From: Centroscyllium fabricii | Taxonomy: Eukaryota | DNA length: 64,000 nt | Assembly (NCBI GenBank): GCA_051313645.2 | Contig: JBNRSN020000007.1 | Coordinates: 98,766,001 to 98,830,000, forward strand | Direction: 5' to 3' | Part shown: in pieces, positions 1 through 62,882 of the stretch | Layout of the letters: each line of letters starts with the position of its first letter | Position numbering within the stretch: position 1 is the stretch's first letter | Translations under genes and position numbers: made by a program | Notes under the pieces: generated by a model | Database searches by the model: none | The model's input: the letters and a program-made list of their open reading frames with translations, nothing else | Told to the model about the DNA's origin: nothing

Positions 1-1189
1 TGATGATACAAAGATAGGTGGGAAAACAAGTTGTGAGGAGGACAAAAAGAATCTGCAAAGGGATATAGGCAGGCTAAGTGAGTGGGCAAACATTTGGCAG
101 ATGGCATATAATGTGGAAAAATGCGAGGTTATCCACTTTGGTAGGAAGAATACAAAAGCAAATGTTATTTAAATGGAGACTACAAAATGCTGTGGTACAG
201 AGGGATCTGGAGGTCCTTGTACATGAAACACAAAATGTTAGCATGCATGTACAGCAAGTAATTAGGAAGGCAAATGGAATGTTGGCCTTTATTGCAAGGG
301 GGATGGCATATAAAGGTAGAGAAGTCTTGCTACAACTGTACAGGGCATTGGTGAGACCACACCTCGAGTACTGCGTACAGTTTTGGTCTCCTTATTTAAG
401 GAGGGATATACTTGCTGTCGTAAAACACGATTTCCTAAATAACCTAGGAAGAGTTACTGGTCGGACTTTCAAACAACCTAGGAACAGTTACTGGTCGGCC
501 AGCTGAGGGCACCGACCAGGGAGTATAAATACTGGGGTCTGAGCCCCAGTTTAGACAGAGACACTCTAGAACTAGGAGGCTAGTGACTGTAAACTCATTC
601 TCACTCTTTATGTTATGTTATCAGTTGAATAAAGCCTTGCTTTATGTTCACTAAGAGCTTGGTAAGTCTTTATTACATCATTTGCATTGGAGGCAGTTCA
701 GAGAAGGTTCATGAGGTTGATTCTTGAGATGAGGGGGTTGTCTTATGAAGAAAGGTTGAGCAGATTGGGCCTATACTTATTGGAGTTTAGAAGAATGAGA
801 GGTAATCTTATTGAAACATATAAGATTTTGAGGAGGCTCGACAGGATGGATGCAGAGAGGATGTTTCCCTTTGTGGAGGAATCTAGAACTAGGGGGCATA
901 GTTTCAGAATGCGGGGTCGCCCATTTAAAACGGAGCTGAGGAGGAATTTCTTCTCTCAGAGGGTCGTGAATCTTTGGAATTCTTTACCCCAGAGAGCTGT
1001 GGAGGCAGAGTCATTGAATATATTTATGGTGGAGATAGACAGATTTTTGAACAATAGGGGAGTCAAGGGTTATGGGGAGCGTGCAGGAAAGTGGAGTTAA
1101 TGCCAAGATCAGATCAGCCATGATCTTATTGAATGGCGGAGCAGACTCGAAGGGCCAAATGACCTACTCCTGCTCCTATTTCTTATCTT
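1..1189 (+). mobile_element. CR1-type LINE, 3' part of ORF2 (RT C-terminus) and 3' UTR, interrupted by a solo LTR at 416-680
   Basis: ORFs 78..506 (LYRALVRPHLEYCVQFWSP) and 687..1100 (EAVQRRF...RRNFFSQRVVNLWNSLP) are typical CR1 ORF2 C-terminal motifs; CR1-like 3' tail gatcagccatgatc...ctactcctgctcctatttctt. Confidence 0.9.
416..680 (+). mobile_element. Solo LTR (265 bp)
   Basis: TG...CA ends; flanks cttgc (411-415) and tttgc (681-685) form a near-perfect 5-bp TSD; contains TATAAA and AATAAA; removing it rejoins the CR1 reading frame (DIL-ALEAVQ). Confidence 0.75.
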
Positions 1190-2313: not shown

Positions 2314-2836
2314 TGAGGTAACCGTATTACCACATGTATATAGTTACTTGTATAGTTGTGGGTGCATTGGCGGGACTTGTACACTGTGGGGTCACTTATG
2401 TATAGATACTGTATGTAAGACCAGGTCAGCCACACCTCTAACTCCTCCCCTCAGGTGGGAGCTTATAGGTAAGGTCTGCCCTGCCCCCATTCATTCTCGC
2501 CTTGTGCTCGACCAGAAACTAGCTCCATTATAAAGTTAATAAAAGCCTGTAGTTAAGGTAACTACTCGGCTTTTGTATTATTGACGATACTGTGGCGGCA
2601 CGCCCACTGAGACATCGAATCCGCCATGGGAACTCCGCGGAGCAAAGCCCCGCTCATCCGGGTGACGCGACGACGTCACCACGTCGGCCGACGCGATGAC
2701 GTCACCAACCGCGGGACTGTTTAAATACGCTCGTTGCGAGTGGTTCACTCTCTTTCTTGTTTTGTTTAGTATATTAAAGCTGTATTTTCTCTAGCTCTGG
2801 CTCACGTGTGGTTCCTAGGCCCTGCCGGCGCTACAG

Positions 2837-2848
2837 TGGTGACCCCGA
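2837..2848 (+). promoter_or_regulatory. Primer-binding site, tRNA-Trp type
   Basis: TGGTGACCCCGA 1 nt after the LTR; identical to the first 12 nt of the tRNA-Trp PBS known from avian retroviruses (TGGTGACCCCGACGTGAT). Confidence 0.8.
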
Positions 2849-2926
2849 ACTGGAACGACTTCCAGAGAAGAAAAGCTGCCGCAGGATCTGGGACCACCAG
2901 CCAAAGAACTTTTTAAATAAGAAAAC

Positions 2927-3128
2927 ATGGTAAACCCAAGGAACCAAGCTCCACGAACGCAAGGACTTGGCCAGAACGCCGGACGTGGACTAACTCTACC
3001 CGAGTTCTGGGAGCAACGGCCAGTGGCCTGGTTTATGTGCATCGAGACCAGCTGCCGCACACATGGCATCCAGGGGGACGACCGCTACGACCTGGTGTTC
3101 TCAGCCCTACCACAGACGACGATCGATC
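2927..3128 (+). pseudogene. gag: N-terminal gag of element B, cut off by insertion of element C
   Basis: LPEFWEQRPVAWF motif; the protein continues at 8129 ([14 protein letters not shown]). Confidence 0.8.
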
Positions 3129-3378
3129 GGTTACCATTGTTGTATACCTGTGTGCAAAGATGCTGCTGGGAGCCAGGTCAGCCACACCCCCGACTCCTCC
3201 CCCCAGGTGGGAGCACTATAAAGGTGTGGTCTGACCCAGCCCCTTTCATTCCTGTATGTGATCTGCCGAGGAGATTAGCTCCATTCTTTATTAATTAAAA
3301 GCCTTGTATTAACGGTAACTACGAGTCGTCTTTAATTAAGTTAGCGACCACGCTACAATTTTAATTAATAATTTTACA

Positions 3379-6300
3379 ATGGAGAGCTGGACATTAGCCC
3401 CCAGGATGCCGCGGCACCGGTCACCTTCAAGCTCTGGTTCAGAGTGCTAGAGGCCTATATGGCAGTCGCCAAGGCTGAAACGGATGCGCAAAAACTGCAA
3501 GTACTGCTATCCAAGATCTCCAGCAGGGTTTTCACCCTCATCGAGGACCATACAACGTACGTAGAAACGGTGGCGACCCTCAAGAGGTACTACGAGCGCC
3601 TGGCCCACACGGTCTACGCCCGCCACCTACTAGCGACCCGACCTCAACTACCCGGTGAGTCAAACGACGAGTTTGAGCAAGCGCTCCGGGGCATGATACG
3701 GGCCTGTGGCTGTAAGGGTGGAATGACTATGATACAGGAGGAAAACCTCCTCCTCCGGGACGCCTTCGTCTCAGGACTAAGATGCGCAGTAGCATGTCAG
3801 AGGCTACTGGAAAAGGAAAATCTGACCTTTGAAGAGGCAACCGCGTTAGCAAAATCGGTGGAAGGGGCCCGCAACAAATTTCAGACGTACGGTGGTACCA
3901 GCTACCAAGCTTACAATGTTTGGGCCGCGACCCAACAGGCGCCACGGATCGAGAGCCCCACCATGGCCGCGACGGCCACCACGGACACTAAGCATAAACA
4001 TTGTTATTTTTGCGGCAAAGGATTGCACCCCAGGGCAAAGTGTCCAGCCAAGACGGCGACCTGTGACAAATGCTCCAAGAAGGGACACTTCTCAAAGGTC
4101 TGCAGATCCAATCCAGCTGCAGCACCAAAAAAGTACAACAGTGCCTGTGAGAGCTCTCAGGAACAGGTAAGCTGCATTTGCAGTAATTTATCCCGACGGC
4201 AAGCGCCCCCCCACCCACCTCGATGCAGCGGCGACCAGCCGAACGCGACCCTCCTACGCGGCCGGCTGCATGCGAACCACGGGCGCCGCCAGCGCGTTCA
4301 CCGCGGTTCGCTGTGTGCAGATCACGGGCACCGCCAACGCCTTCACCGCAGTTCGCTGCGTGCGAATCACGGGCACCGCCAGCGCCTTCACCGCGGTTCG
4401 CTGCGTGCGAATCACGGGCACCGCCAGCGCCTTCACCGCGGTTCGCTGCATGCAGATCACGGGCACTGCCAGCGCCTTCACCGCGGTTAGCTGCGTGCGA
4501 ACCACGGGCGCCGCCAGCGCCTTCACCGCGGTTCGCTGCGTGCGGATCACGGGCACCGCCAGCACGCCAGGGCTCTGTACTAACCGAATCTTGTCTTCCC
4601 CCAGGTCCCTCCATGTGCGAGCCAGGGGGGCGGCCATCTTGTCTTCCCCCAGGTCCCTCCATGTGCGAGCCAGGGGGGCGGCCATCTTGTCTTCCCCCAG
4701 GCCCCTCTATGTGCGAGCCAGGGGGGCGGCCATTTTGTCAGGTCCCCTCCACGTGCGAGCCAGGGGGGCGGCCATCTTGTATTCAGGGCCCCTCCATGTG
4801 CGAGCCAGGGGGGCGGCCATTTTGTCAGGTCCCCTCCACGTGCGAGCCAGGGGGGTGGCCATCTTGTATTCAGGGCCCCTCCATGTGCGAGCCAGGGGGG
4901 CGGCCATTTTGTTTTCAGGCCCCCTCCATGTGCAAGCCAGGGGGGCGGCCATTTTGTGCGCAGCTCCCTTCAGCAGGGGCTGCGGCAACCGGACCTACAG
5001 TTAGCCAGGACAAGCCCCACACCCTGTCTAACTCCATAAGGCCAATCAAAATCAACGATCACATGGTCAACTGCCTTTTTGACACGGGCAGCACCGAGAG
5101 CTTTATCCACCCTAATACAGTGCGGCGCTTCGGACTGCAGGTCCTGCCCACTAACTACCAAGTCTCATTAGCTTCACAGTCCCACACCGCGGACGTCACC
5201 GGCTACTGCTCCGTCACGCTCACCGTCCAGGGACGCGTGTACCGTAATTTTAAATTGTATACCATCCAGCAGTTGTGTGCCCCAGCCTTACTAGGTCTGG
5301 ACTTCCAGTGCCACTTCAGGAGTGTGACAATGGAGTTCGGCGGGACCCTTCCCCCACTCACCCTCAGTAGCCGGGACAATCTCCTCCCAAAGCGGACCCC
5401 GGCCTGCGGCCTCTCCACCCTGAAAATCGATCCCCCCTCGCTGTTCGCCAACCTCGATCCGAAGTGCAAACCTATCGCCACTAAGAGTCGGCGGTACAGC
5501 GAGGGGGACCGCATGTTTATCAGGTCGGAGGTCGGGCGGATGCTAAAGGAGGGGATTATTGAAGCCAGCACCAGCCCCTGGCACGCCCAAGTTGTAGTGG
5601 TGAAGTCTGGCGACAAACAACGGCTGGTTATCGATTACAGCCAGACTATCAACCGCTACACCGGGCTCGACGCCTACCCCCTTCCCCGCATCTCGGAAAT
5701 GGTCAATCAGATCGCCCAGTACAAGGTGTTCTCCACGATCGACCTTAAATCGGCGTATCACCAGCTCCCGATCCGGAAAGCTGACCGCCCCTACACCGCC
5801 TTCGAGGCGAACGGTCGGCTCTATCACTTCCTCCGGGTCCCATTTGGCGCGACCAACGGAGTGTCAGTGTTCCAGCGGGAGATGGACCGTATGGTTGATC
5901 AAAATGACTTGCAGGCCACCTTCCCTTACCTGGACAATGTGACCATCTGCGGCCACGACCAGCAGGACCACGATGCCAATCTGGCCAAATTCCTTGACAC
6001 GGCAGCTAAGCTGGACCTTACGTATAACAAAGACAAATGTGTCTTTAATACAACCCGGCTCGCCATCCTCGGATACGTGGTGGAGAACGGGCTCCTCGAC
6101 CCCGACCCACAGCGTATGCGACCCCTGCTAGAACTGCCCTTACCTCACAACCCCAAAGCCTTGAGGAGATGTCTAGGATTTTTCTCCTACTATGCACAAT
6201 GGGTCCCGCAGTTCGCAGACCACTCCTCAAGGCTGCCGTCTTCCCTCTTTCTATAGAAGCTCAAACGGCATTCGAAAAGATAAAAGGAGATATTATCAAG

Positions 6301-7866
6301 GCGACCAAGCTCGCTGTTGATGAATCCATCCCTTTCCAGGTGGAGAGTGACGCTTCGGACTTTGCCCTTGCTGCCACCCTGAATCAGGCAGGCAGGCCCG
6401 TAGCGTTTTTCTCCCGCACCTTACAGGGACCCGAAACTCGCCACTCAGCAGTGGAAAAGGAGGCCCAGGCCATTGTGGAGGCTGTGCGCTACTGGCGTCA
6501 TTACCTGGCCGGTAAGCATTTTACCCTGCTCACCGACCAACGGTCGGTGGCGTTTATGTTTAACAACAAACTACGGGGTAAAATCAAGAATGATAAGATC
6601 ATGCGGTGGCGGATCGAACTCTCGACTTACGAGTACGACATTCTTTACCGACCAGGGAAACTCAATGAACCCCCGGACGCACTGTCCAGGGGAACGTGCG
6701 CCAGTGCCCAGCTAGACCGGCTGAAGGACCTCCACGACCGCCTCTGCCACCCGGGTGTCACCAGACTCGCCCATTTTGTCAAATCCCATAGCCTCCCCTA
6801 CTCCATCACGGAGATCAAGGCTATGACCCGAGATTGCCCTGTCTGCGCCGAGTGCAAACCCCACTTTTTCCGGCCAGACACGGCGCACCTCATCAAGGCC
6901 ACCCGCCCCTTTGAACGCCTCAGCGTAGACTTCAAAGGCCCCCTCCCCTCCACTGATCGCAACTCATACTTCCTCACGGTAGTGGATGAGTTCTCCCGCT
7001 TCCCCTTCGCCTTCCCCTGCCCAGACATGACGAGCGCAACGGTGATCAAACACTTCACCACGCTGTTCGCCATCTTCGGTCTCCCCAGCTACATCCATAG
7101 CGACCGGGGGTCATCGTTCATGAGCGATGAACTGCGTCAGTTTCTGCTCCAGAGAGGGGTTGCCACGAGCAGAACGACCAGTTACAACCCCCGGGGGAAC
7201 GGCCAGGTAGAAAGGGAGAATGGGATCATTTGGAAGGCGGTCACCCTGGCCCTCAAGTCCAGAGGCCTTCCAGTGTCCCATTGGCAGGCAGTCCTCCCAG
7301 ACGCGCTGCACTCTATTAGGTCGTTATTATGTACAGCTACTAATGCCACCCCGCACGATCTTGTTTTTTCTTTCAACAGGAAGTCAACTTCGGGGACGGC
7401 GCTCCCACCATGGCTGACGACCCCTGGGCCGGTGTTCCTTAAGCGGCACGTTCGGTGCCACAAGATGGACCCCCTGGTGGACAAGGTACAGCTCCTACAC
7501 GCCAACCCGCACTATGCCTTTGTGCAGTTCCCAGACGGGCGTGAGGACACCGTGTCCATCAGGGACCTGGCCCCGGCCGGCAACACCGCCACAGCGCCTC
7601 CTGCTGGCCAGCAGGTCAACCTACCATCAGACACAAGATGGGCCCCGAGTTTCCCCGCCGATGCACCAGACGAGGTCCAGCAGAACCCACCACGTCCTGA
7701 AACTACAGCACCGACGGAGGCGGGCTATTCGGCCATGGGGGCATCACCACCAACATCGGAACCCCGGCGGTCCGCAAGACAAACGCGACCGCCGGAGAGA
7801 CTTATCACGAACTGTTCGATACATTCACCCCCCCCCCCGGACTCAAAGTTTTTAACAAGGGGTGAA
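3379..7866 (+). pseudogene. gag-pol: gag-pol of element C with frameshifts (near 3388, ~4200, ~6220)
   Basis: Zinc knuckles CYFCGKGLHPRAKC and CDKCSKKGHFSKVC; protease LFDTGS; [15 protein letters not shown]; RNase H ESDASD; integrase HHCC, DFKGP, SDRGS, GQVER. Confidence 0.9.
4268..4955 (+). repeat. Two in-frame tandem arrays (45-bp RFAACESRAPPAPSP units; 42-48-bp CEPGGRPSC units) between gag and protease
   Basis: Repeats visible in DNA and in ORF 4223..6256; unit lengths are multiples of 3. Confidence 0.9.
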
Positions 7867-8128
7867 TGTGGTAACCCTTATATGGGTAACCCTTATATGG
7901 GTTACCATTGTTGTATACCTGTGTGCAAAGATGCTGCTGGGAGCCAGGTCAGCCACACCCCCGACTCCTCCCCCCAGGTGGGAGCACTATAAAGGTGTGG
8001 TCTGACCCAGCCCCTTTCATTCCTGTATGTGATCTGCCGAGGAGATTAGCTCCATTCTTTATTAATTAAAAGCCTTGTGTTAACGGTAACTACGAGTCGT
8101 CTTTAATTAAGTTAGCGACCATGCTACA

Positions 8129-11100
8129 GTGCCCACCGCAGGCAGTTATGAATCACTCAAGGCCGCGCTTATAATTTTTTTTACCCCCTCTCAATTTGAG
8201 CGCGACTGCCAGCTCCTCGACCTCCCCGAACTCGGGGACGCAGACCCATCGGACCTCTTAGGTCAGATGCAAGCGCTCACACCCAACCTGGCCTCCCTCT
8301 TCCGCAACGTCTTCCTCCTTAAACTACCCCGCGCCATCAGACCGGCCTTGGCGGCCCTTGGCCAGCGGAGCGATGACGAGCTCGGAGAGGAAGCCGACAG
8401 GCTCATGGAGGCGCAGCGCACCCGCTCAACCACGTGCGACCCTAACTCCGCATCGGTAGAGCGCAGCCAATCACCCCCCAGGCATAACTTTACGCCTGAA
8501 CCTAGGGCCCCACGCTCACCTAGGCAACCGCGTCCCTCTAGCACCGGCTGGTGCTACTACCACACGCGGTTCGATCATAAAGCGCACCGCTGCGTCCAGC
8601 CATGCGCGTTCAAGCCACGGCCCAACTCAGCCCCCACCATGTCTGTAGGCCACACAGGAGCACTGCTCTTTGCCACAGACAGCGGCACAGGTCTCAGGTT
8701 CCTCTGCGACACAGGCGCGCAGCAAAGCATCGTGCCAGCCTCCCCTGCAGAAACCAAACAAGGCACCCGGGGCCCGCCACTAGCGGCGGCCAACGGCTCC
8801 AGTATAAAAACGTACGGCACCTGCAAGCTTACAATTACCCTTGCAAGCCACGCGTACACTTGGGATTTCGTAACGGCCCAGGTCACATCGCCCCTCCTCG
8901 GGGCAGACTTCCTCTGCGCCTACGGCCTACTGGTCGACGTAAACCGGCGCCGCTTGGTCAACATAAATACTATGACGACCATCCCATGCTCCACAGGGCC
9001 CGCACTCCTGGCCCACGCGGCAGCCCAATGCCGCTCCCGGGACTCCGATGCCTACGGCACACTCCTGGCAGAGTTCCCCGCCCTAACCAACCCCACGTTC
9101 ACCGCCCGCCAGGCCAAACACGGGGTGGAGCATTTTATAACGACCACAGGCCCTCCCATCCATGCCCACGCCCGTAGGCTCGACCCGGCCAAGCAGGAGA
9201 TAGCGCGCACCGAGTTCCGCACCATGGAGCAACTCGGTATAATCCGCCACTCCAGCAGCCCCTGGTCCTCTCCGCTCCACATAGCCCCCAAGCCCGACGG
9301 AGGGTGGCGCCCCTGCGGCGACTACCGCCGCCTAAACAACGCCACCACCCCGGATAGGTACCCCGTACCCCACATCCAGGATTTTTCCGCCAGATTAGCG
9401 GGCTGTACGATCTTTTCCAAGATCGACCTGGTGCGTGGCTACCACCAGGTGCCGGTACACCCGGCGGACATTCCAAAAACGGCCGTTATTACCCCCTTCG
9501 GGCTCTTCGAGTTCCTGAGGATGCCCTTCGGCCTTAAAAATGCGGCCCAGGCCTTCCAGCGCCTCATGGACTCAGTCCTACGGGACTTGAGGTTCATTTT
9601 CGTCTATTTAGACGACATTCTCGTGGCCAGCACCTCCCCCCAGGAACATCTCCTGCACCTCAGGACCCTGTTCCAGCGCCTTACCGAACACAGCCTTATC
9701 TTAAGCCCCACCAAGTGCAAATTCGGCCTCGAGACTATTGACTTCCTCGGCCACCGCATTTCCCAAACAGGGGCCATACCCCTGCCCTCCAAGGTGCAGG
9801 CGGTACAGGAATTCCCCCGCCCGCACTCCATTAAAGGGCTGCAGGAATTTTTAGGCATGGTTAATTTTTATAACCGCTTTATCCCGGGAGCAGCCGCTCT
9901 CATGGCCCCCTTATACCAGGCCACCCGCGGGCAGTCCAACAAGGCTGCGGTTGAGTGGACGGCCGACGCCGCCACCGCCTTCACCGCAACTAAAACCGCC
10001 CTGGCAAACGCCACCCTCCTAGCCCACCCTAGGCCCAATGCCAGAGTAGCCCTCACCACCGACGCCTCCGACCATGCGGTCGGGGCCGTATTTGAGCAGT
10101 GGACCGGCAACTCGTGGCAGCCCCTGGCCTTTTTCAGCCGGCAACTCCGACCCCCAGAGGTTAAATACAGCGCCTTCGATAGGGAGCTACTCGCTCTCCA
10201 TCTGGCAGTGCGACACTTTCGTTTCCTCTTGGAGGGCCGCCACTTCACAGCCTTCAGCGACCATAAGCCACTCACGTTTGCGATGGCTAAGGTCGCCGAA
10301 CCCTGGTCGGCCAGGCAGCAGCGCCAACTCGCGGCCGTGTCGGAATTTACAACCGACATCCAGCACATTTCCGGCCGCGACAACGTGGTCGCTGACTGCC
10401 TCTCACGCCCCACCATTAACGCCGCCCAAATGGCGGTCGATTACGCCCAGCTGGCCGCGGACCAGCTGGCCGACCCCGACCTGCTCAACGCAGCAGCTAA
10501 TCTCCCCGGCCTCCACTTGGCCAAAATCGCGCATGGCCCCGCTGCCACTGTCGTCTGCTGCGACGTATCCTTGCCGCAACCCAGGCCAGTCGTACCCCAC
10601 GCTTGGAGGCGACACATATTTAAGACCCTCCATGACCTGTCCCACCCCGGCGCCTGCACGTCCATCAAATTAATCTCGGCCCGATTCGTATGGCGTGGCC
10701 TGCGCAAGGACGTCCGCGCCTGGGCCAGCTCCTGCATAGCCTGCCAGCGCTCCAAAGTGCATAAGCACATCAGGGCACCGCTGGAAACTTTTAAAGTGCC
10801 GGCCAGACGCTTTGACCACGTCCATATCGATCTCGTCGGGCCACTACCGCCATCCCGGGGCCACACGCACCTAATGACCATGGTCGACCGCAACACTCGC
10901 TGGCCAGAAGCAGTCCCCCTCACTGCCACCGGCACCACGGACTTGGCCAGGGCGTTCATCGCCACCTGGGTCGCCCGCTTTGGCGTGCCCACAGACATCA
11001 CCTCCGACAGAGGACCCCAGTTTACGTCGGCATTATGGGCGGCCATCGCCCGCGACCTTGGGGTGACACTACACCGAACCACCGCATACCACCCACAGGC

Positions 11101-11731
11101 GAACGGCCTATGCGAACGGTTCCACCGCTCAATGAAGTCATCACTACGAGCCACACTAAAGGACGCATCGTGGACCGACCGCCTTCCATGGGTTCTCCTC
11201 GGGCTGCGCTCGGCAGTCAAGAAAGAACTAAACGCCTCGGCAGCAGAGCTCGTCTACGGCCAAACTCTAACGGTGCCGGGCGAGTTCCTGGCTGAGCCCA
11301 ACGCTCCCTGGTCAGCCGACCAGTATTTAAAAGACTTCGCCAACCCGGCACGAGCTTTCCAGCCACTACCAGTGGCCCGGCACGGAGAGCCGGCAGCTCG
11401 GGTGCCGGACGACATTAAAAAAGCTAAATTTGTGTTCGTCCGGCGCGACGGACACCGATCTCCACTACAGCCACCGTACGATGGCCCCTACAGAGTGCTT
11501 CGGGCGGGAGCTAAAGCGTTTGAATTACAAATGGGCAACAGGACTGACACTGTGACAATAGACTGGCTCAAGCCGGCGCACGTTATAGCGGGTGAGACAA
11601 CGGTCCCCGCACAACCACCACAACGCGGTCGCCCTCCCGCAACAAAACCCGCCCACACTCCACCGCAGAACCAGGAGCAACAGACAACACGGTCCGGCCG
11701 CATCATCCGGCCACCCCAACGGCACACATAG
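8129..11731 (+). CDS. gag-pol: Uninterrupted remainder of the gag-pol polyprotein of element B (1200 aa)
   Basis: CHCC finger [18 protein letters not shown]; protease CDTGA; RT YLDD; RNase H TDASD; integrase HHCC, DLVGP, SDRG, GLCER; GPY motif. Confidence 0.93.
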
Positions 11732-12008
11732 ACTCTGTCACTATTCCTCCCGGACGGATTCTGGGGGGAGCTGTGTGGCGGCACGCCCACTGAGACATTG
11801 AATCCGCCACAGGAACTCCGCGGAGCAAAGCCCCGCTCATCCGGGTGACGCGATGACGTCACCAACCGCGGGACTGTTTAAATACGCTCGTTGCGAGTGG
11901 TTCACTCTCTTTCTTGTTTTGTTTAGTATATTAAAGCTGTGTTTTCTCTAGCTCTGGCTCACGTGTGGTTCCTAGGCCCTGCCGGTGCTACAATACGTCA
12001 ATTTTAAT

Positions 12009-12836
12009 GGGCCCTGTTTTCCTGTGCTCCAGAGGAGCTGCACACTCACGAAGTGGGGTCAGAAATGCCCCGTGGGTGTGCAGCACAGGGGATGCCCACG
12101 AATGGTAATTTCCTGTGCTGATGGGCAAGGCCCGTCAGCTTCCAACGCAGGAAGACCTTGCACTGACGATTTCCTGTCAGAACGGTGATTTTTGGAGAGT
12201 GATTCTGTGTGCAACTGGCTCACAAGCTGCACATTTAAAAACCAGTAGTAAGGGGAGAAGATTTAGTTACTGAAGCAGGTAAGTTAATTTTTTAACTTAA
12301 ATTTTAATTTTTTACAGTTTTTGGGAGTAGTGTGGCCAGATCGGTAGCGTTAAATTTTTAAGTTAAAGTTTTTAAAAAAAAATTACAAATCCAATTTTAA
12401 GTTAATTTACCTGTTTCAAATTACTAATTTTTAAAGTTAAATTTCTGAAATTTTTAACTCTCTAGCTATTAAAAAATCTAAGAGGAAAAAATGGGAGACT
12501 TACCTTCCGTTTCTTCCTCTGAGAAGCTGCTGTGCCCGCGCTGCTCCTCCACCGAGTCTGTGAGTGCAGCTCCGCACTTCCCTGCTCTCACAAAGGTCCG
12601 ACTCGGGATCTGTTTATTTAAATTAGGGATCTGGGGGTGTTTTTTATTTAAATTTGGGATCTGTGGGCGGGGCTTACACTGCGCATCTAGCGTGGCTGGA
12701 CTGCCACGCAGCGCAGGAACGGGGAGGAACGGTTAGGAAATTGACGTTGAAACTTCTGTGCAATGTTGGTGCGTGAGATTAGGAGTCCCCAGGGTCCTAG
12801 CGCACGCACTAACCGGCACACAGGAAAACAGGGCCC
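12009..12836. mobile_element. Non-autonomous DNA transposon (MITE), probably ISL2EU/Harbinger-related
   Basis: TIR gggccctgttttcctgtg / cacaggaaaacagggccc; AT on both sides (TA or TTAA readings are also formally possible). Confidence 0.8.
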
Positions 12837-12854
12837 ATTAACTTTATTTTTAAA

Positions 12855-15317: not shown

Positions 15318-18300
15318 TTCACCCCTTCTTAAAAACTTTGAGTCCAGGGTGGGTGAATGGATTGAACAGTTCATAATTAATCTGTCCGGCGGTCGTGTCT
15401 GCCTGGAGGACCGCCGGCGCTCCGGTGTTGGCGGCGGTGCCTCCTGGGTCAAATGGTCCGCATCTGCCGGCGCTGTGACTTCAGGTGGCGGCGGGCTCGG
15501 CTGGTCCCCGCCGTCCGGGTCGTAGTCGGGGAAACTCGGGGGCCATCGTGCGATTGGTGGTTGGTCGGCCTGCTGGCCAGCAGGAGGCGCTGCGGTGGTG
15601 TTTCCGGCCGGGGCCAGGTCCCTGATGGACACGGTGTCCTCACGCCCGTCCGGGAACTGCACGAAGGCGTAGTGCGGGTTTGCGTGTAGGAGCTGTACCA
15701 TGTCCACCAGGGGGTCCATCTTGTGGTTCCGGACATGCCTTTTAAGCAAAACCGGCCCCGGAGTCGTCAGCCATGGAGGAAGAGCTGTCCCCGAAGTCGA
15801 CCTCCTGTTAAAAGAAAAAATCAGATCGTGCGGGGTGGCGTTAGTGGCAGTACACAACAGTGAGCGAATAGAGTGCAGCGCGTCTGGGAGGACTGCCTGC
15901 CAATGGGACACTGGAAGGCCTCTGGACTTGAGGGTCAGGGTGACCGCCTTCCAGATGATCCCATTCTCCCTTTCTACCTGGCCGTTCCTCCGGGGGTTAT
16001 AACTGGTCATTCTGCTCGTAGCAACCCCTCTCTGGAGCAGAAACTGGCGCAGTTCATCGCTCATGAACGATGACCCCCCGGTCGCTATGGATGTAGCTGG
16101 GGAGACCGAAAATGGCGAACAGCGCGGTGAAGTGTTTGATCACCGTTGCGCTCGTCATGTCTGGGCAGGGGAAGGCGAATGGGAAGCGTGAAAACTCATC
16201 CACTACCGTGAGGAAGTATGAGTTGCGGTCGGTGGAAGGGAGGGGGCCTTTGAAGTCCACGCTGAGACGTTCAAAGGGGCGGGTGACCTTAATGAGGTGC
16301 GCCGTGTCTGGCCGGAAAAAGTGGGGTTTGCACTCGGCGCAGACAGGGCACTCCCGGGTCATAGCCTTGATCTCCGTAATGGAGTAGGGGAGGCTACGAG
16401 ATTTGACGAAATGGGCGAGTCTGGTGACACCCGGGTGGCAAAGGCGGTCGTGGAGGTCCTTCAGCCGGTCTAGCTGGGCACTGGCGCACGGTCCCCTGGA
16501 CAGTGCGTCCGGGGGTTCGTTGAGTTTGCCTGGTCGGTAAAGAATGTCGTACTCGTAAGTCGAGAGTTCGATCCGCCACCGCAGGATCTTATCATTCTTG
16601 ATTTTACCCCGTTGTTTATTATTAAACATAAACGCCGTTGGTCGGTGAGCAGGGTAAAACGCTTACCGGCCAGGTAATGACGCCAGTAGCGCACGGCCTC
16701 CACGATGGCCTGGGCCTCCTTTTCCACTGCTGAGTGGTGAGTTTCGGGTCCCTGTAAGGTGCGGGAGAAAAACGCTACGGGCCTGCCTGCCTGATTCAGG
16801 GTGGCAGCAAGGGCGAAGTCCGAAGCGTCACTCTCCACCTGGAAAGGGATTGGTTCATCAACAGCGAGCATGGTCGCCTTGATAATATCTTCCTTTATCC
16901 CTGCGAATGCCGTTTGGGCTTCTACAGAAAGGGGGAAGACGGCAGCCTTGAGGAGTGGTCTAGCCTTATCTGCGAACTGTGGGACCCATTGTGCATAATA
17001 GGAGAAAAATCCTAGACATCTCCTCAAGGCTTTGGGGTTGTGAGGTAGGGGCAGTTCTTGCAAGGGTCGCATACGCTGTGGGTCGGGGCCGAGGAGCCCG
17101 TTTTCCACCACGTATCCGAGGATGGCGAGCCGGGCTGTATTAAAGACACATTTGTCTTTGTTATACGTGAGATCCAGCTTAGCCGCCGTGGCGAGAAATT
17201 TTGCTAGATTGGCATCGTGGTCCTGCTGGTCGTGGCCGCAGATGGTCACGTTGTCCAGGTAAGGGAAGGTGGCCTGCAAGTCGTTTTGGTCAACCATACG
17301 GTCCATCTCCCGTTGGAACACTGACACTCCGTTGGTCACGCCAAAGGGGACCCGGAGGAAGTGGTAGAGCCGACCGTTCGCCTCGAAGGCGGTGTAGGGG
17401 CGGTCAGCTTTCCGAATCGGGAGCTGATGATACGCCGTTTTAAGGTCGATCGTAGAGAACACCTTGTACTGGGCGATCTGATTGACCATTTCTGAGATGC
17501 GGGGAAGGGGGTAGGCGTCGAGCCCGGTGTAGCGGTTGATAGTCTGGCTGTAATCGATAACCAGCCGCTGTATTTCGCCAGACTTCACCACTACAACTTG
17601 GGCGCGCCAGGGGCTGGTGCTGGCTTCAATTATCCCCTCCTTCAGCATCCGCCCGACCTCCGACCTGATAAACGTGCGAGCCCCCTCACTGTACTGCTGA
17701 CTCTTAGTGGCAATGGGTTTGCACTTCGGATCGAGGTTGGCAAACAGCGAGGGGGGGTCGATTTTCAGGGTGGAGAGGCCGCAGGCCGGGCTCCGCTTTG
17801 GGAGGAGATTGTCCCGGCTACTGACGGTGAGGGGGGGTAAGGTCCCGCCGAACTCCATTGTCACACTCCTGAAGTGGCACTGGAAATCCAAACCTAGTAA
17901 GGCTGGGGCACACAACTGTTGGAGGGTATACAATTTAAAATTACGGTACACGCGTCCCTTGATGGTGAGCGCGACGGAGCAGTAGGCGGTGATGTCCGCG
18001 GTGTGGGACTGTGAAGCTAGGGAGACTTGGTAGTTGGTGGGCAGGACCTGCAGTCCGCAGCGCCGCACTGTATCAGGGTGAATGAAACTCTCAGTGCTGC
18101 CTGTGTCGAAAAGGCAGTCAACAGTATGCTCATTAATGCTAATCGGTATTATTGAGTTAGACAGGGTATGGGGCCTGCCCTGGCTAACTCTGATTCTAGC
18201 TGCCGCAGCCCCTGCTGATCGGGGCTGTGTACAAGATGGCGTCGCCCCTGGCTCGCACATGGAGGGGTCCTGGGTACAAGATGGCGGCGCCCCTGGCTCG

Positions 18301-19616
18301 CACATGGAGGGGCCCTGGATACAAGATGGCGTCGCCCCTGGCCCGCAGCTGGTGGGGCCCCGTATACAAGATGGCGTCGCCCCTGGCTCGCACATGGAGG
18401 GGCCCTGGATACAAGATGGCGTCGCTCCTGGCCCGCAGCTGGTGGGGCCCCGTATACAAGATGGCGCCGCCCCTGGCTCGCACATGGAGGGGCTCTGGTT
18501 GCAAAATGGCGTTTCTGAGGGGACGCACGCGGTGGGGCCTTGTGAACGCGCTGGCGGCGCCCGTGATTCGCACGCAGCGAACCGCGGTGATCGGGTTGGC
18601 GGTGCCCATGATTCGCACGCAGCGGGCCGCGGTGATCGGGTTGGCGGTGCCTGTGATTCGCACGCAGCCGGCCGCGTTGGGGGGTCGCGCTTGGCCGGCC
18701 TTTGCTGCATCAGGGTGGGGGATGGGGGCGCTTGTTGTTTACCCCCGTACCGTCGCTGGATCGCGCTGCTATTGCAGCTTACCTGGTGTCTGTCGGTGCT
18801 CTCACAGGCTGCACTGTTGTACCTTGAGTTGGGCGCTGCTGGAGCTGATCTGCAGGCTTTAGCGTAGTGTCCCTTCTTTGCACACTTCTCGCAGGTCGCT
18901 GTCCTGGCTGGGCATTTCGCTCTAGGGTGCAGTCCCTAGCTGCAGAAGTAACAGCGCTTGCTTTTAACGTCTTTAATGTCTTTAGTGGCCGTCGCGGCCA
19001 TCGTGGGGGCCCCGGCCCGTGGCGCCCAGGCCTGGGCCTGTTGTGGCGCGGCCCATATGTTGTAGGCTTGCGGGTTAGTGCCGCTGTATGCCTGTAACTT
19101 GCTACGGGCCCCCTCTACCGATTTGGCTAACGTAGTCGCCTCCTCGAGGGTTAAATTGTCTCTCTCTAGTAGCCGCTGGCGGGCTTCCACACACCTCAGT
19201 CCTGTGACATAAGCGTCCCGAACGAGGAGTTCTTCCTCCTCTGCAACAGTTGTGCCTTTGCAGCCACAGGCCCGTACCAGGGCCAGGAGCGCTTGCTCAA
19301 ACTCCTCATTTGACTCACCCGGTAGCTGAGGTCTGGTCGCCAGCACATGTCGGGCGTAGACCGAATGGACTGGGCGCACGTAACATTTCTTCAGGATTAG
19401 TATAGTCCTTTCGTAGGTTGAGGCGTTCCTGACGAGGGTGAATACCCTGCTGGAGATTTTTGATCGCAGGACATGTAGCATGTCCTTGTCTGATGTAGCC
19501 TCGGCGGCTTCCATGTAGGCCTCCAGAAGGCCGAACCAGTGTTCGAAGGTAGCGGGAGCAGCAGGGTCCTGGGGACTGATGTCCAGCTTCTCAGGTTTAA
19601 CTGTGCTGCTATCCAT
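15318..19616 (-). pseudogene. gag-pol: gag-pol of element D, originally a single ORF (TAG at 18936, frameshifts near 16635 and 16075)
   Basis: ORF 18936..19616 is in frame with 16470..18710; protease FDTGS, RT YLDN, RNase H and integrase motifs; tandem arrays at about 18230-18670. Confidence 0.9.
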
Positions 19617-19767
19617 TTTAAAATAATTTAGTAATTAAAATTGACGTATCGTCAAGGTCTTCAATTAAAAGAGTCGACACGTAGTTACCGAAACTAAAGG
19701 CTTTTAATTACTAAAGAACGGAGCTACTCTCCAGACGAACTACTGTACAGGAATGGATGGAGCCTCA

Positions 19768-21181
19768 TGTAAGGGGTTTGGCAGCCGGCCTTCTCCAGGC
19801 TCGACCTAGAGTCCCTGCACCTTGCCTTGGTCCCGCGACCAGGCCTCGCACACCGGGTCCCTGTGAGCGGTTCGAAACGCTCCCCCCTACGGTTCTCGAC
19901 ACTGGGCTTATGTACAGGAGTTGTGATAGTGTAGGTAATTCCTGCCAGAACAGAGTTCCAAGAGACCAGAGATGTGATGTTTAAAACACAGTTCTTTATT
20001 ACACATTCAATACTTTACAAAAGTAGAACCAAACGTTAATCATTGTTAAAACAGGATGGAGAGGGTACGACACAACGTAACATTGGGCAAACATTAAACA
20101 GCTACACCCCAATATGCTTCCACGACACCCACCCTCCACTTCCTACACTATCCTATGTCCAGACGTGCAGAAGCGGAACACCATACTCACCATGGGCTAT
20201 GTTTACTGGGGGTTCGGGGTTCGTTGGTTGCACCTCCTTCGTCCTTCGATTAGGTAGCTGTGGAAGGGGCTCTCTCTCTCTCTCGCTCTTCCGCCTTCCT
20301 GGCTTCCTGGCACCGACTTCTGATGCAGGCAAGCACTTTTCTAGCTGATCTCTAACCGAGTGCACCTTTCTTTCTGGTTCAGACCTCCACTGCTTCTCTC
20401 CAGCTCTTACTTTTAAATCGATACTGTTACTGTTTCTGGCTATTAACTGCCATCAGCTCTTTGCTTGAGCTCTCGTTCTTCAGTTCGTCAGCCTGTTAGC
20501 TTCCTAGCTCATCAGTTACCCTCTGTCCGACTCCCTCTGTCCGTTGTGTTTTCTTAGTTCAAAACCCTGGGCCGTTATACCCCCGCACCTCGCGCTTATC
20601 TGCGCGCCAGATCTAGCGTGCCCTTTTGTCTTTAAGTGAGGTTAGATCTGTTCTTTTCTGTTCTGATGGTCGCCTAACAGACTGGTAATCTCCTGACCAC
20701 CTGTAAACGTTTTTCCTGTTAAGCGATCTCTGTGCATAAGCTTTTTCCCATCACCTGCCCTCGGGTTTCTATGGGCCTTTTGTTTTAGTTGACGAGGTTA
20801 CCTCGGTGCCCTTTGTCCATCTGCTGGACACCGGCGCCTCCCAGTCTGGGGACTCGATCTCGTTATGTGGGCTATTCATGACCAATATCCAAAGTCTATC
20901 TGGTCATGATTTTGCAGAAAATGTGTGTGTGGGGCTGTTTTAGCTTCACTCTGCCAGGCTGATCACGTGGTCGGCGAAGCCATTTTGTGGCCCCTGCTTG
21001 TGTCTGGTTTTCTTTTAAAAGTCTCTGGCTATGGCCCTTTTCCCTGGTACAGAGCCACATCTCCATACCCAGGGTGCCCCCACATTATCGGTTTTAACAA
21101 AAGCATGTTGCTTGCAGTTCTGTGTTATGAAAAGTGTTGATAGTAGTTCTGGATCCGGGAAACATCAGCTCAAATCTTACA
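19768..21181 (-). repeat. 3' LTR of the gag/env element
   Basis: Direct repeat of 26909-28322; minus-strand TATAA near 20577 and AATAAA near 19997. Confidence 0.95.
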
Positions 21182-21604
21182 GTCCCTCCTGTTTGATTCC
21201 ACACACCCCAATGTGTTGCAATCAAATTAAATTACGGTTGAGCTATGTTTTCCCGGTTGTCCACGTCCAGACCCCCACTATTTTACCTAAACTAGTGCCC
21301 AAGTACTTAACGTACAGTCCCCATCTTTCAGGCCGACCTATACATTACTGCCTTCCCGGGTCACTATATACACATAAACATTCCCCAGATTTGTGCCCGT
21401 CTTTCAAAACTTACACCCCTTTTCCTCGGCTGATGCCGTCCACCAACCGTCCTCCTGTCGGTGATCGTTTTATTGGGGCACAAAGATCAATACATACACC
21501 ACAAAAAGAAAATACCTTCAAAACTTAAACGTAAATATCTATACAGTGTTTTCAATGAGACTCTCTCACAGAGAGGTAAAATTGGAGGTGACTTCTTCCC
21601 CATG

Positions 21605-24079
21605 TCAGCAGCTTGTCTCTGCCTCCGGTTCGTCCGCCCTGACGTACCGGTCCCTCCATTCCCCTCTGCCTATCCGGCTGCGAAGCCGCTGTCTCCCTCT
21701 GCACTGTCCACATATTAAATAGGACACTATAAAAGCTTGCACCACCACTAACACGTGTGATGCAATTCTAACCCAAGATGGGACTTCTATATTATTGAAC
21801 AGGTCCCACCACGGGGGAACCACTATCTCCAATATGTCTGCCCCAATCTTATCTGTCTTCTGTTCCAGGGTGTAAAAATGCTTTTGCGATACGGCAACTG
21901 CTTTTAAAAGTGTTGTGAGGTGTTCGGGGAGAGGGGGTATGGCATACCCAAAATGCGCCACAAAGTGCTGCAGGTTGGTGAAATTCTCCCTTACAGTGAT
22001 GTGAACCGTGGAGGGTTCAGGTATGGGGACGATTCGCAGCTGTGCCACTTGAACCTCTGCCTGTGGTTTAAAACAGAAGCTGCTGTCACTCACCGGACAT
22101 AGGCCATGCTGCCCGTGTCGGTAGTGTTGCGCTGCAGTGGTAATACAGTAAGTACCACCCCCTATGTATGCCACCTGTGGAGGGACATGGTCCTGTGCCA
22201 TCGCCTCCATAGTGCAATTCATAGGCTTCGCGCCAACAGCCCTGAACCCACACTACTGTACCCGCAAGACATTCAAGTGCTGGGGACACAATATTATGTG
22301 TGCTCCCCTGCTCCGGCACCCCGAGAGGTCTGTACCTGTCATCGACTGCTCCCAGCGGACAACATACGGTGGGACCTCTGCGTAGCGAACGTGTACTCCC
22401 CCCTGAATGACTCCGATGTTCTCCACCCTGTATACCGGTGCGGGCCTTGCCGTCTTGCCCAACACCGGCATCCGTACCACCACTCCCATGACCGTGTAAT
22501 TAGAACGCCCACAGTCAATGGGAACCGGGTACGCCTCTGACGCCAACCTGAGCTGACACGGTGTAAGCGCGTTCTGAAAAGGCTGCAGTGCTTGGAGGTG
22601 TTTGTTACTGATCCAGGACGGGACCAACCCTTGCTTCAGGTCCTCAAGGTTGCTGCGGCCCTCGCCCAGCAACCACGCCCCGTACAGAACGCACACCTCG
22701 TTCTGCGCAGCCTGGTCAGAAGCGTTCCGATCTTCCTTGATCAGAGCGTTCACCGTGCTCGCGTGTCTTTCTAATTCCGCGATTATCTCGCGCAGGTGCA
22801 GTGTCATCGCCTGGTCCTCATGGAGCTCCGACCCGACGACCTTGTTCTCCTCCGTGAGGATGTCCTTCAACTGCGACTTTAAACCGTTTATCTGGGTCTG
22901 CAGCTCCATGGTGTCGAGAGCGTTGACCACAGAGGCTCCGGTGTTAAAGCCCGTGAACACATCATTCACTACACCCCTCTTTTGTCTCCCCGTTTGGCCC
23001 CATGTCTCTGGCCCTTGGCGGTACAGGCTTGCCTTGTCTACACTGGCCAGGTCAAATTCGTAAAACTGCCTGTACATATTTGCCAGCAGCACCTGATATA
23101 ACCTTTCGGTCTCCTTGGGGCACCACTCCGGCAACCTTACCTCGGTGAGGTTTAAAATCACCGAGGCCACCGTGTAGTGCACCCCCTGGTATAATACCTG
23201 GCCACCCTGGCCATTCTCGGGCCCCCGTGTAGTCTTGGGGCACCCACCCTCCTGTGCTGCTGCCCGCCTCGGTGTGGGAGGTGTTGTGCGTGGTCGGGTG
23301 ACGAGTTCAGTGGCGTTAACTGGGCTCGGGGAAAATGGGACCCCACAGGCTTGTGAGCTAACATCCCACCTCATCCCCTTACCACCATCTTGCCACTGCT
23401 GGTGGAAAAATATGCTGTTCCCTGTGGGGCACAAATACCTGGAACCCCACATACACACATAAATTCCCTCATCAGGCTCCCACCACTTGTCCCAACAGAC
23501 ACTCAAACTTTCATTAGTCCCAAAGACTGTCCTGTGAGTGTTGTTGTCCAGCTTTTCCCAATTCACGGTTGAGTTGGCCATGGTCCGGCTGGTTTTACGT
23601 AGCCACCACCTCAACCGGGTGTCGACCTTTCCGGTGCACCTCAGGCAAATCCTCTTGCCGGCCGTGACGCTGATCTTCTGGGCGACGATCTTCACTTTTG
23701 GGCACAATAACTCAGTGTCCCTGAAGAAAAATCCTGGGGTGCCGAGATACTCAGAAGCGTTCGATCCCAGCCACCCTGGCCATCGCCCCTGGTGGAAGAA
23801 AACGGCAGCTCCTTCGGTTGTCCGTTGTCCCGTCCCATCGGTCGCGGTAGGCGCGGTGCTTCCCGAACATCCGTATACCACGATGTCCTGGGTGCGGCCC
23901 CGATAGGCCCACCCGCATCCGATCGCCAGGAAGATGATTCCCCATCTTAGTGCCTCGTTCGGTTCCTGAAACAGATAACGTTGGTATAGCCAGCCTCTCC
24001 AAGAGCGCTTGGCTGTGTTAAAGACCCATGCTTGGGTCTGATGACCCCAGCCCGTACCCCGCATCTGCACCCTGGACAC
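21605..24079 (-). CDS. env: Envelope / class I fusion glycoprotein, about 820 codons with one in-frame TAG at 22253-22255
   Basis: ORFs 22253..24079 and 21605..22222 share a frame; signal-like WGIIFLAIGCGWA; Ig-like C..W..DEGIYVC; furin site RQKR; fusion-peptide-like GVVNDVFTGFNTGASVVNAL; heptad repeat; Cys-rich ectodomain; TM IASHVLVVVQAFIVSYLIC. Confidence 0.85.
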
Positions 24080-24183
24080 ATTGCCCCTTTTACCTAACCC
24101 AGTAAAATATAACTTAACTTACCACTAAACTTCTTAAAACTACCTAGCCTATAATACAGCGCCGCCCTTCCAAGGCGGCCAGG

Positions 24184-26904: not shown

Positions 26905-26908
26905 AATC

Positions 26909-28322: not shown

Positions 28323-28496
28323 GTCGGTCAGACCACACCTATACCGGGGCCTCAGCTGGGGGAGGAGTCGGGGGTGTGGCTGACCTGGCTCCCAACAGAG
28401 TCACAGTAAACAGGGCTGTGCCTAACATCTGCACAGCCCATCATTAGCCATGGTGATACAGTGGTATAACTGATATAGAACGGTTACCACAGGCTC

Positions 28497-32100: not shown

Positions 32101-33758
32101 GCCACAGGTAGTGTACTAGGGGTACCGCCTTGAGCCGCGGTTTCTGACCGTGAGTGAGGGAAGGGATCCGCCGAATGCCATCGTAACGCTCTGAAGGTGG
32201 CACTGAAAATCCAGTCCCAGGAGTAGGGGGGCGCAGAGCTGCGGCAGCACGTAAAAACTAAAGTCGTTAAACATTGCGCCCTGTACATTAAGCGTTACAA
32301 TACAGCGCCCGGTGACGTCAGCGGATTCCGACTTGGACGCCATCGATATTCTCTGGCGCGCAGGGATTACTCTAAGGGAGAGGCGCTTTACAGTATTTTG
32401 GTGAATAAAACTTACTGTGCTCCCACTGTCGAACAGGCACACCACTTCTTCCCCGTTGACTTCCACCGGCATCATCGATTTCTCCAGTGGTTGAATCTTC
32501 CTCTGGTCTAGGCTCATGGATGCTAACACCGGGTCCTCCGAGTTGTCTTGATCCGGAGAGTAGTCCTCCAAGTCTGCTCCCCAAGATGGCTGCCGCCATG
32601 TGGTGTACTGTGGAGGTGGAGGCTGAGTCCAAGATGGCCGCTGTTGCTGCTGCTGCCACGAGGGCTGCTGAGTGGGGGATGGGTGAGCCCAATATGGCTG
32701 CTCCCCTGTTCTACACGCGGCACTGCCCAGTTTGGATTTTGCGCTAGTGTTTTTACAGACCTTCGCATAATGTCCCTTCTTGTCGCATTTTGAGCAGGTC
32801 GCTTCTCTAGCAGGGCAGCTGCGTCTTGAGTGCTGAGGTTGTCCACAAAAGTAGCATTTAGCTTTAGCGTGGGCAGCTGTGAGTAATTCTTCTGCCGGTC
32901 GTTGCGCCAGCACTGTCCAAGATTGCGGGGCTGGGCCCGTATAGTTACTTGAATATGAGGATAGGTCCATTGATGCGCTATCCAGCGCGTGCCCCAAGTC
33001 TGTAGTCGCCTGTAAGTCCTGGCCGTTCTGCTCCAGCAGTCTCTGCCTGGCATAGTCCGATTTTAGGCCTGTTACATAGGCGTCTCGGATGAGGCTCTCT
33101 ACATGGACTTGAGCCGTTTGCGCTCTGCAGTCGCAGTCCCGTGCCAGAATTCTGAGGGCTCTTAGGACTCGTTATTTTGTTGCTTCCTGGTGGCGAGTAT
33201 ATGTCTCGCGTGGACTATGTTTGGTGCCCGATTATATTCCGTCTCGAGGATCCTGATGGCCTCTTGGAACGATGGGGCGTCCACTATCATCGAGTACACT
33301 TGAGGGCCCACCCGGGCATGGAGGAGTCGCCGTTTTTGCTCCTCGGTCACTATGACCGCCGCGTTGGCTCTGATGTACCCTTCGAGCATGTTTCGCCAGT
33401 GTGAGAAGGCGTTCGATGCTCCTGAAGATCGGGGATCAACTTCGAACACTGCTGGTTTAAGCATTGTGGTATCCATTTTACAGTAGTGAATAAAATTGTA
33501 ACCTTCAATTACGTTCTCGGAGTCGAGTAGTAGATTAGAACAATCAGGCTTTTATTCACTACAGTTAGATTACACACCAGCAAGCTGACTGTTCCCTGGA
33601 ATGGCACGGGGGATGGGGGCAGTCACTTATATACCTCCTCCAGCGGGGGAGGAGTCGTGGGCGGAGCCGGGTATGTTCCAGGTATCATCTCGCAGTGGAA
33701 TACAGTACAGGTGATATATGGTGATTAGCTATATACAGTGATATACACGTTTATCACA
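29117..33758 (-). mobile_element. Gypsy element E (YLDN family, divergent subfamily); LTRs 29117-29392 and 33497-33758
   Basis: Perfect 5-bp TSD gctac (29112-29116 / 33759-33763); LTRs differ by a 14-bp indel and a few substitutions; PPT aagaaggggtgaa. Confidence 0.93.
29498..33476 (-). pseudogene. gag-pol: gag-pol of element E with about three frameshifts
   Basis: ORFs 33162..33476 (gag), 32116..32997 (knuckles, FDSGS protease), 30610..32001 (RT YLDN, RNase H), 29498..30649 (integrase). Confidence 0.9.
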
Positions 33759-62700: not shown

Positions 62701-62882
62701 GACTGGAGGCTAATAACCCTCTCCAGCTAATTGTATAATAGGGGCTAACCAATCCAGAGAAGGACATGATAATTGGAGTAACGACTCAATAAACTGAAAA
62801 GAACCCCTATGAACTTAAAGGGACAGTCCCAAAACCCTAAAGAAACCTCTATAAACTAAAAGGGACAGTCCACCCCATGACA
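59701..62882 (-). mobile_element. Element G: non-autonomous sushi-like LTR retrotransposon; LTRs 59701-60351 and 62230-62882
   Basis: Perfect TSD gaaac (59696-59700 / 62883-62887); LTRs look identical except one TA unit; G-run PPT. Confidence 0.95.
60363..62213 (-). CDS. gag-pro: Gag-protease fusion (PEG10/RTL/sushi-like), 616 aa, acidic tail, no RT
   Basis: PERYAGDPEQCEPFL...VAFVINHLTDRARLW capsid region; EPMQLG; protease IDSGAD and ILGHAWLRRHNPHIDW; Kozak gccaccATGG. Confidence 0.9.
   Translation of the reverse strand: MDPAEALKRLIHVEGALAHQGLALGEVISKIEGLTTAWSQREVSESAGVSLPPHTDSEGGLAPMHQLIAPALEPRVGVPERYAGDPEQCEPFLTSCSILFSLQPHTFANERTRVAFVINHLTDRARLWGTAEWERNTQACFSFEAFSTELRRVFGRVRFDSEAAQGLMSLSQGNDTVANYAIDFRIRARRSEWNQAALREVFIHGLSEYIKDDLVSYDLPPTLDELIYLTTRIDLRIQARRRERRLGGSGRHPPSQTPEVFMTPRGTATARPERVAPESMQWGRNQGRFGPSRETVAAGVEPGGPEPMQLGRTGFRPARYKGPHSPTNGVVMMSRAPDGFSSNPRPLCQARFLLPRGSQSIIICIDSGADMNIIDEDLVTQLGIDQEPLPQSYPVHALDGHILGTVTHQTSPVLMLMSGDHQESIQFHILRSPQIPLILGHAWLRRHNPHIDWNTGDILGWNLSCHQGCLRRAQISGLRATDQDPPAANYSRSGSPERQVGQREFDPAERFSCPTQDIGETQPISDSHSSHLDQPDKETSTLERSRQVIGAIQLQESLTKEEEPDDEWESADEEDSSQSDYETDIEECFEDYWFPSTLLYPPDPAFEALGRQESPP

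Follow-up and report, generated by a model that had tools for sequence, protein, structure and literature searches.

In a lineage of Ty3/gypsy retrotransposons, the bases that follow the 5′ long terminal repeat (LTR) are an exact Watson-Crick complement of a segment of the same LTR, the arm, which ends in ...TAAA and is then followed by RCC. The feature is real and lineage-wide, and it extends far beyond the stretch in which it was noticed, namely 64,000 nucleotides of Centroscyllium fabricii DNA (the window; positions are counted from its first letter). Minus-strand DNA of these elements is probably self-primed from the arm, which would lie internally in the transcript, after a cut of the RNA at AAA/GCC.

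The stem in the window

Copies A, C, D and E of the window belong to one Ty3/gypsy lineage. An earlier note on the window had proposed a stem between the post-LTR site and the LTR in every copy that retains the junction, and a sequence check found all seven stretches quoted there in place. The stem is complete in C (13/13), D (14/14) and E (13/13), and in copy A the site flanks on both sides of an insertion match the arm at 2530-2544 once that insertion is removed. The site begins 1 nt past the CA of the LTR as described, the single spacer in copy C being A (3358). The features are as follows.

3129..3357, + strand: 5′ LTR of copy C; first ~33 nt absent, TACA end, 98.7% match with the 3′ LTR
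3217..3222, + strand: TATA box of copy C; a TATA-like word is found in related copies
3245..3251, + strand: initiator-like TTCATTC of copy C; predicted RNA start at 3248, which would put the arm 40 nt downstream
3288..3300, + strand: LTR arm and proposed primer of copy C; ATTAAA at 3294-3299; 13/13 complement of 3359-3371, with covariation
3301..3304, + strand: GCCT after the arm of copy C; proposed cut at 3300/3301 and predicted start of a second helix
3331..3339, + strand: second partner of the arm in U5, copy C; D/C-like subfamilies only
3359..3371, + strand: equivalent of a primer-binding site in copy C; 1 nt past the LTR, no TGG
3379..7810, + strand: gag-pol (PR-RT-RH-IN) of copy C, frameshift-broken
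7857..7866, + strand: polypurine tract of copy C, from sequence
7867..8128, + strand: 3′ LTR of copy C; its copy of the arm is at 8059-8071
19627..19715, − strand: copy D; arm 19715-19702, site 19640-19627, 14/14
33483..33562, − strand: copy E; arm 33562-33550, site 33495-33483, 13/13
2530..2544, + strand: arm of copy A; its site is split by an insertion into ~12002-12007 and 12838-12847
418..680, + strand: solo LTR of a long-leader subfamily of the same lineage, the likeness being judged by eye

Copies D and E are flanked by 5-bp target duplications. Copy A has been broken twice, by the tRNA-primed gypsy element B in its U5 (2591-11992) and by a short inverted-repeat insertion in its site; the latter (~12008-12837) has GGGCCC ends and probably a 3-bp duplication. 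Element B (+ strand) carries a TGGTGACCCCG site and a 4-bp duplication, and copy C in turn sits in the gag of B. Two relatives have likewise inserted just past the arm of such LTRs. We take the TGGTGACCCCG site of B to be of the tRNA-Trp type, and its gag to be a CsRN1-like CHCC gag.

Two further elements lie in the window. A sushi-like element at 59700-62885 (−), which serves here as a control, has 657-bp LTRs that are 99.7% alike and a Ty3_capsid/DUF4939 gag with protease, without pol; its post-LTR bases 62228-62218 form an 11-nt complement of 62686-62676, the classical Tf1 layout. The element at 19768-28325 (−), inserted in the 5′ LTR of D, has 1,417-bp LTRs that are 99.4% alike. Besides a zinc-knuckle gag it has two further ORFs, one of them env-like with an RQKR site; a search for pol found none, and the env-like ORF had no match in the Atlas. 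Its ATG lies 4 nt past the LTR, where neither a TGG site nor an LTR complement of more than 6 nt was found.

Pairing and covariation in the host genome

One search pattern used on the host genome constrained nothing but the end of the LTR, five bases at the start of the site and the start of gag, and it gave 72,116 matches against 94 for its control. Among 112 loci selected in this way, 110 have at least 11 of the 13 positions paired, and in these 110 copies 1,411 of 1,430 positions are Watson-Crick pairs, with seven G-U and six A-C; all 110 have the spacer of 1 nt past the CA, a spacing set by the selection pattern itself. Each site fits its own arm (7.85/8) far better than permuted partners (5.06 ± 0.13). 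Genome-wide, 223,916 junctions were counted in the 7.2-Gb genome, whereas the control pattern was found once, and the choice between AATAAA and ATTAAA (position 6) is mirrored on the other strand of the stem in all but 951 of them (427 + 524). Since the pattern counts stand far above the controls and own partners beat permuted ones, the stem is not a product of chance.

The covariation proposed in the earlier note proved strong in a larger set of copies. It covers 250 of 257 fetched copies, in which 3,217 of 3,250 stem positions pair, with G-U and A-C at 10:10, and the perfect 13-mers found in the host are of 20 distinct sequences. The stem has a sharp edge: the pairing fraction is 0.97 at position 13, 0.36 at 14 and 0.18 at 15, and in the E-like group it falls from 97% to 11% across the 13/14 edge. 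On a gag DNA tree, positions 6, 8, 9, 10 and 12 change 4, 13, 8, 1 and 3 times, respectively, both sides together, and at these positions no unpaired state is common to three or more copies. Some of these 29 paired changes may be due to recombination instead of new mutation. At position 7, G-U singles (492 genome-wide) are at the level of decay, and compensated G-C doubles number six against about one expected if single rates are supposed equal. Wobble is not favoured in the main stem. The long-leader subfamily, which was obtained by protein search, has the same stem, 44 of 47 copies pairing at 10 or more of 12 positions.

Distant relatives

Distant loci were fetched from metagenome contigs by protein similarity, with the site disregarded. 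Three of the 84 had too little upstream DNA, and of the 81 scored, 66 reached at least 10/12 and fall into 35 groups; the other 15 are decayed, replaced or partial, not all being accounted for. The pairing in two of the 35 groups (L145 and L173) was judged to be chance and these were dropped, leaving 33 families. In them 417 of 429 positions pair, which is an upper view because the groups were chosen on pairing, and own partners again exceed permuted ones (8.67/9 vs 4.73 ± 0.23). The 33 families contain 32 different site sequences in the same geometry, which excludes one tRNA as the common partner. CAA precedes the site in 29/33 of these protein-selected families and RCC follows the arm in 25/33, and where a second LTR is complete, as it is at seven loci, the end of the repeat is no more than 2 nt from the site. 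The stem, 13 nt long in the host, ranges from 13 to 18 nt with a soft edge in the distant relatives.

Unbroken relatives have a single gag-pol ORF of 1,450 aa with protease, RT, RNase H and integrase, and the lineage has the TG...CA LTRs, polypurine tract and PR-RT-RH-IN order of Ty3/gypsy elements. No chromo family was found in the 1,450-aa ORF or in the Pfam lists for 120 relatives, and Ty3_capsid/DUF4939 matches, present in the sushi-like element of the window, are absent from the gag of the lineage. Between gag and protease there are in-frame tandem repeats (window 4200-4960 and 18230-18680), with units such as ACESRAPP and MCEPGA in relatives. Among proteins with a named source, the nearest belong to rays and catsharks (73-80% identity), and there are relatives at 56-66% in Trichuris, Actinostola, Ischnura, Cyamophila and Styela as well as in many further contigs, so that the hosts include sharks and rays, a nematode, a sea anemone, insects and a tunicate. 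None was found in the viral contigs searched. For a comparison with the named metazoan gypsy clades Cigr-1, MolGy, Mag and CsRN1, RT words of the lineage were looked up in supplement files of PMC6238403 and not found. Loci L091-L103 are animal-type retrotransposons in contigs under the names of bacterial metagenome-assembled genomes, which likely reflects host contamination of those genomes.

Predicted RNA start and the poly(A) signal

In copy C the arm lies 71-83 nt from the TATA box at 3217-3222, in agreement with the 70-80 nt given in the earlier note. In 91 of 98 D/C/A-like copies the arm is preceded, at 67-70 nt, by a TATA-like word; a YCATT initiator follows at TATA+28 to +30 in 68 of these 91, and another 18 have it at +25 of a tandem CATTCATT. 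The distance from TATA to arm is 68-72 nt in 69/87 E-like copies and 91-99 nt in at least 31/44 long-leader copies. From this spacing, the RNA is predicted to start ~40 nt upstream of the arm, or 65 nt in one subfamily, and the arm would therefore be internal to R and present at both ends of the RNA. This predicted start supports the claim that the geometry is unlike that of Tf1/sushi elements. A search of RNA runs for the D LTR had no match, and contigs from three runs yielded no usable transcript ends. In the sushi-like control, the 11-nt arm lies 3 nt past an initiator-like CATT and ~375 nt upstream of its AATAAA.

The hexamer in the arm is ATTAAA or AATAAA, and nothing else, in 108/110 host copies, as the note had it, and GCC follows the arm in 100/110, that is, in most copies although not always as had been stated. 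Among the distant families 17/33 have a canonical hexamer in the arm; 16/33 do not, five of them having one downstream. In the host, the change at position 7 by which pairing is preserved while the hexamer is lost has not spread, suggesting that the hexamer is a working poly(A) signal, and the arm probably has this second function there. The proposal that the stem hides the signal at the 5′ LTR alone has become weaker. In predicted folds the hexamer is paired at 0.97 with the site and still at 0.55 without it, and it is paired without the site in 47/94 host copies, the reason being that U5 of many LTRs contains another co-varying partner of the arm. This partner is lacking in 30/107 copies, and in all 77 that have it, it matches arm position 6; it may form a poly(A) hairpin in both LTRs of the D/C-like subfamilies, as far as the predicted folds can tell. 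Masking of the poly(A) signal is at most a secondary role.

Other helices are less constant. A helix ctccatt/aatggag over the gag ATG is indeed present in the predicted fold of C, but it is a subfamily trait and not conserved (6 bp or more in 32/110 copies, 2 bp or fewer in 43/110). The four bases past the arm are paired above shuffled controls in 33/45 representatives (Wilcoxon p 5e-4, predicted folds). The Tf1/sushi group is characterised by a pretzel of three duplexes that involves sequence next to the site; in the present lineage a helix starting at RCC, mostly a local U5 hairpin, was predicted in 30/45 folds and was absent in 15/45, the folds being computed without pseudoknots. Its first pair may be A-U, G-U or G-C, so that wobble is tolerated in this helix, in contrast to the main stem.

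Probable self-priming and the source of the primer

The earlier suggestion of self-priming at a site without a tRNA match agrees with the absence of TGG past the LTR and with the complementarity of the site to its own LTR. In the model regarded as probable here, the arm would pair with the post-LTR site, and the RNase H of the element, whose catalytic residues are present, would cut the RNA at AAA/RCC at the junction with the RCC helix, by analogy with Tf1. Extension from the new 3′ end of the RNA would copy U5 and thereby fix the end of the LTR 1 nt away. The location of the site 1 nt past the CA, where the 3′ end of a primer defines the LTR end, is counted in favour of self-priming. So are the distance of about 13 bp between the two active sites of the Ty3 RT (PMC5371799) and the cutting of its own RNA duplex by the RNase H of Tf1 (PMC7175516), although a 13-nt primer is also expected from a Tf1-type cut measured from the 5′ end.

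The arm that serves as primer may be the one in the 3′ R, belonging to the same or a co-packaged RNA, and this version is tentatively preferred, being slightly favoured over priming by the 5′ arm. In this version strong-stop DNA would extend as far as the cap and be transferred to R at a point immediately upstream of the primer. Trimming of R by RNase H to the edge of the duplex would leave a remnant of 13 nt, which could account for the sharp edge of the stem, and once this remnant is copied in plus-strand synthesis the site would again be its perfect complement. Such elements might represent a fourth kind of priming, in which the RNA is circularised, its poly(A) tail is cut off behind the signal, and the new 3′ end of the genome is the primer; this is offered as a tentative proposal. 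With similar reserve, plus-strand copying may be what keeps the site an exact mirror of the arm in an animal-wide clade of Ty3/gypsy elements. Ty3 and Ty1 do not inherit the site from the primer (PMC5371799), so site copying is not a given, and strict selection could alternatively maintain the perfect pairing.

The same cut could instead be made in the 5′ arm, folded back on the site. This would free a capped primer of ~53 nt, and strong-stop DNA would end at GCC and jump on the short stretch of R between the cut and the poly(A) site. It is the version nearest to Tf1, and the stem is predicted to form locally with a probability of ~0.9 in the leader of C. Nevertheless, the unpaired 40-nt tail of such a primer leaves the sharp 13-nt edge unexplained by itself. 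The two versions should also differ in crossovers: a cut in the 5′ arm would place them at the arm end or beyond it, and priming by the 3′ copy would place them between the RNA start and the arm. In 160 D/C/A-like copies (165 sites), the excess of incompatible site pairs is greatest at −30, upstream of the arm (z 3.6 and 4.2; p 0.003, the limit of 300 permutations, with 23 boundaries tested twice), there is no excess at +20/+30, and the result at +13 is mixed (z 0.3, and 2.6 with the wide test window). The strongest signal is thus upstream, against the 5′ version. The signal is weakly replicated: 87 E-like copies gave z 2.4 at −30 together with z 2.2-2.9 at +30, the latter in favour of the 5′ arm, and 39 long-leader copies gave no crossover signal. 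Copies of the D subfamily have no informative site in R, single mosaic cases in the LTR comparison can also be read as homoplasy, and segment-distance correlations do not separate the versions (arm-R1 0.71, arm-U5 0.67). Two-strand folding, which ignores concentration and topology, joins the site to the 3′ arm in 89/125 copies with the U5 partner, and without this partner the 3′ arm wins in 7/96, the 5′ arm being preferred in the other 89. On balance these results favour the 3′ copy but do not decide the matter, the 5′ fold-back being slightly less probable.

Readings outside this model are all unlikely, to different degrees. Tf1-type priming might have re-arisen in a non-chromovirus clade if a minority or packaging-specific transcript started at the arm and RNase H cut 13 nt in. 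The fixed length of 13 nt in the host equals the ruler of the Ty3 RT, an initiator-like CATT lies ~5 nt upstream of the arm in 24/91 copies, and Tf elements are reported to use alternative start sites (PMC5341516). This reading is nonetheless unlikely: the conserved TATA and initiator are 40-65 nt upstream, and no TATA is found at a fitting distance (24-36 nt upstream of the arm in 0/33 distant families); R would be reduced to ~35 nt and would open with the poly(A) signal; and the sushi-like control of the window has a different layout. Alternatively, the stem might do no more than mask the 5′ poly(A) signal or control translation, the primer being, for example, some A-rich RNA of the host or else a poly(A) tail paired with the TTT(T). 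The restriction to two hexamers and the compensated change at position 7 that never spread do mean that the hexamer is constrained beyond pairing, and its pairing rises with the site in predicted folds. A regulatory hairpin, however, should accept G-U and need not adjoin the LTR end, about half of the distant families have no canonical hexamer in the arm, and no other primer site is found there, which together make a purely regulatory role quite improbable. Ty3/gypsy elements by default use a tRNA or a fragment of one as primer, as with element B and its TGG site, but here the sequences make such priming extremely improbable. The TGG start expected of such a site was found past the 5′ LTRs of neither the host copies nor the distant families, and the 20 host and 32 distant site sequences each match their own LTR. 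A genome search for TGG after LTRs was uninformative, its matches being mostly flanks of 3′ and solo LTRs. The 64-kb window contains no tRNA genes, and Rfam gave only three sub-threshold miRNA matches.

Implications

Self-priming in animals has so far been linked to chromoviruses of the Tf1/sushi group. Independence of tRNA would also exist in a second and very successful gypsy lineage of animals, which has a different layout and more than 220,000 junctions in one genome. This layout would tie priming to 3′-end formation. Its elements would escape silencing by tRNA fragments, and LTR finders that require a tRNA site would miss or down-rank them. Because the cut site and the source of the primer are predicted to the base, the model is directly testable.

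Comparison with known systems

The primers of LTR elements are a whole tRNA, half a tRNA, or a self-primer released from the 5′ LTR portion of the transcript (PMC6317226), and further background on priming and LTR elements is found in PMC3601003, PMC6934838, PMC6238403, PMC11363490 and PMC13524379. Ty3, whose RT is the nearest with a solved structure (E 3e-32), differs from the present lineage in priming with tRNAiMet on a bipartite site that is not inherited from the primer, and the 5′ and 3′ ends of its RNA cooperate in initiation (PMC5371799). Skipper, with a polypyrimidine site, and the fungal GalEa, with a conserved hairpin site, also lack a tRNA site and their priming is described as unexplained; unlike the present lineage, they are reported without an LTR segment complementary to the site in the available text of PMC5006619 and PMC5445492. 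The plant Ty1/copia elements of the TAR lineage (Houba, Osr-1) share with the present lineage an LTR-complementary site outside the chromoviruses, but belong to another superfamily and another kingdom; their self-priming is predicted, as is that of Tcn1 in the literature, and the accessible part of PMC6317226 does not place the TAR primer on the poly(A) signal. The pairing of the U5 partner in the D/C-like subfamilies resembles the poly(A) hairpin of HIV-1. In that hairpin, AAUAAA is held in a stem with downstream U5; its role is regulatory only and the primer is tRNA-Lys3. Tf1 keeps its primer on the cDNA, a property not used as evidence here. The literature covered, which leaves out most subscription journals, Repbase and GyDB, contains no account of a site complementary to a poly(A)-signal arm.

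The closest parallel is the Tf1/sushi group (Tf1, Tf2, Tj1, sushi-ichi and Tcn1), in which the first 11 nt of the RNA are the primer and a chromodomain is present (PMC4600332; bioRxiv 10.1101/2022.12.06.519325; PMC7175516). The lineage described here differs in that its arm is 13-17 nt long, lies ~40-65 nt past the predicted start and 24-76 nt before the LTR end, and overlaps the poly(A) signal, and in that a chromodomain is absent. It is outside the Tf1/sushi group by the chromodomain, and probably also by the position of the primer. Nevertheless, both have no tRNA site, a post-LTR perfect complement of an LTR segment, helices by the presumed cut, which are predicted ones in the present lineage, and a Ty3/gypsy RT with RNase H, and the lineage likely works in the manner of Tf1 self-priming.
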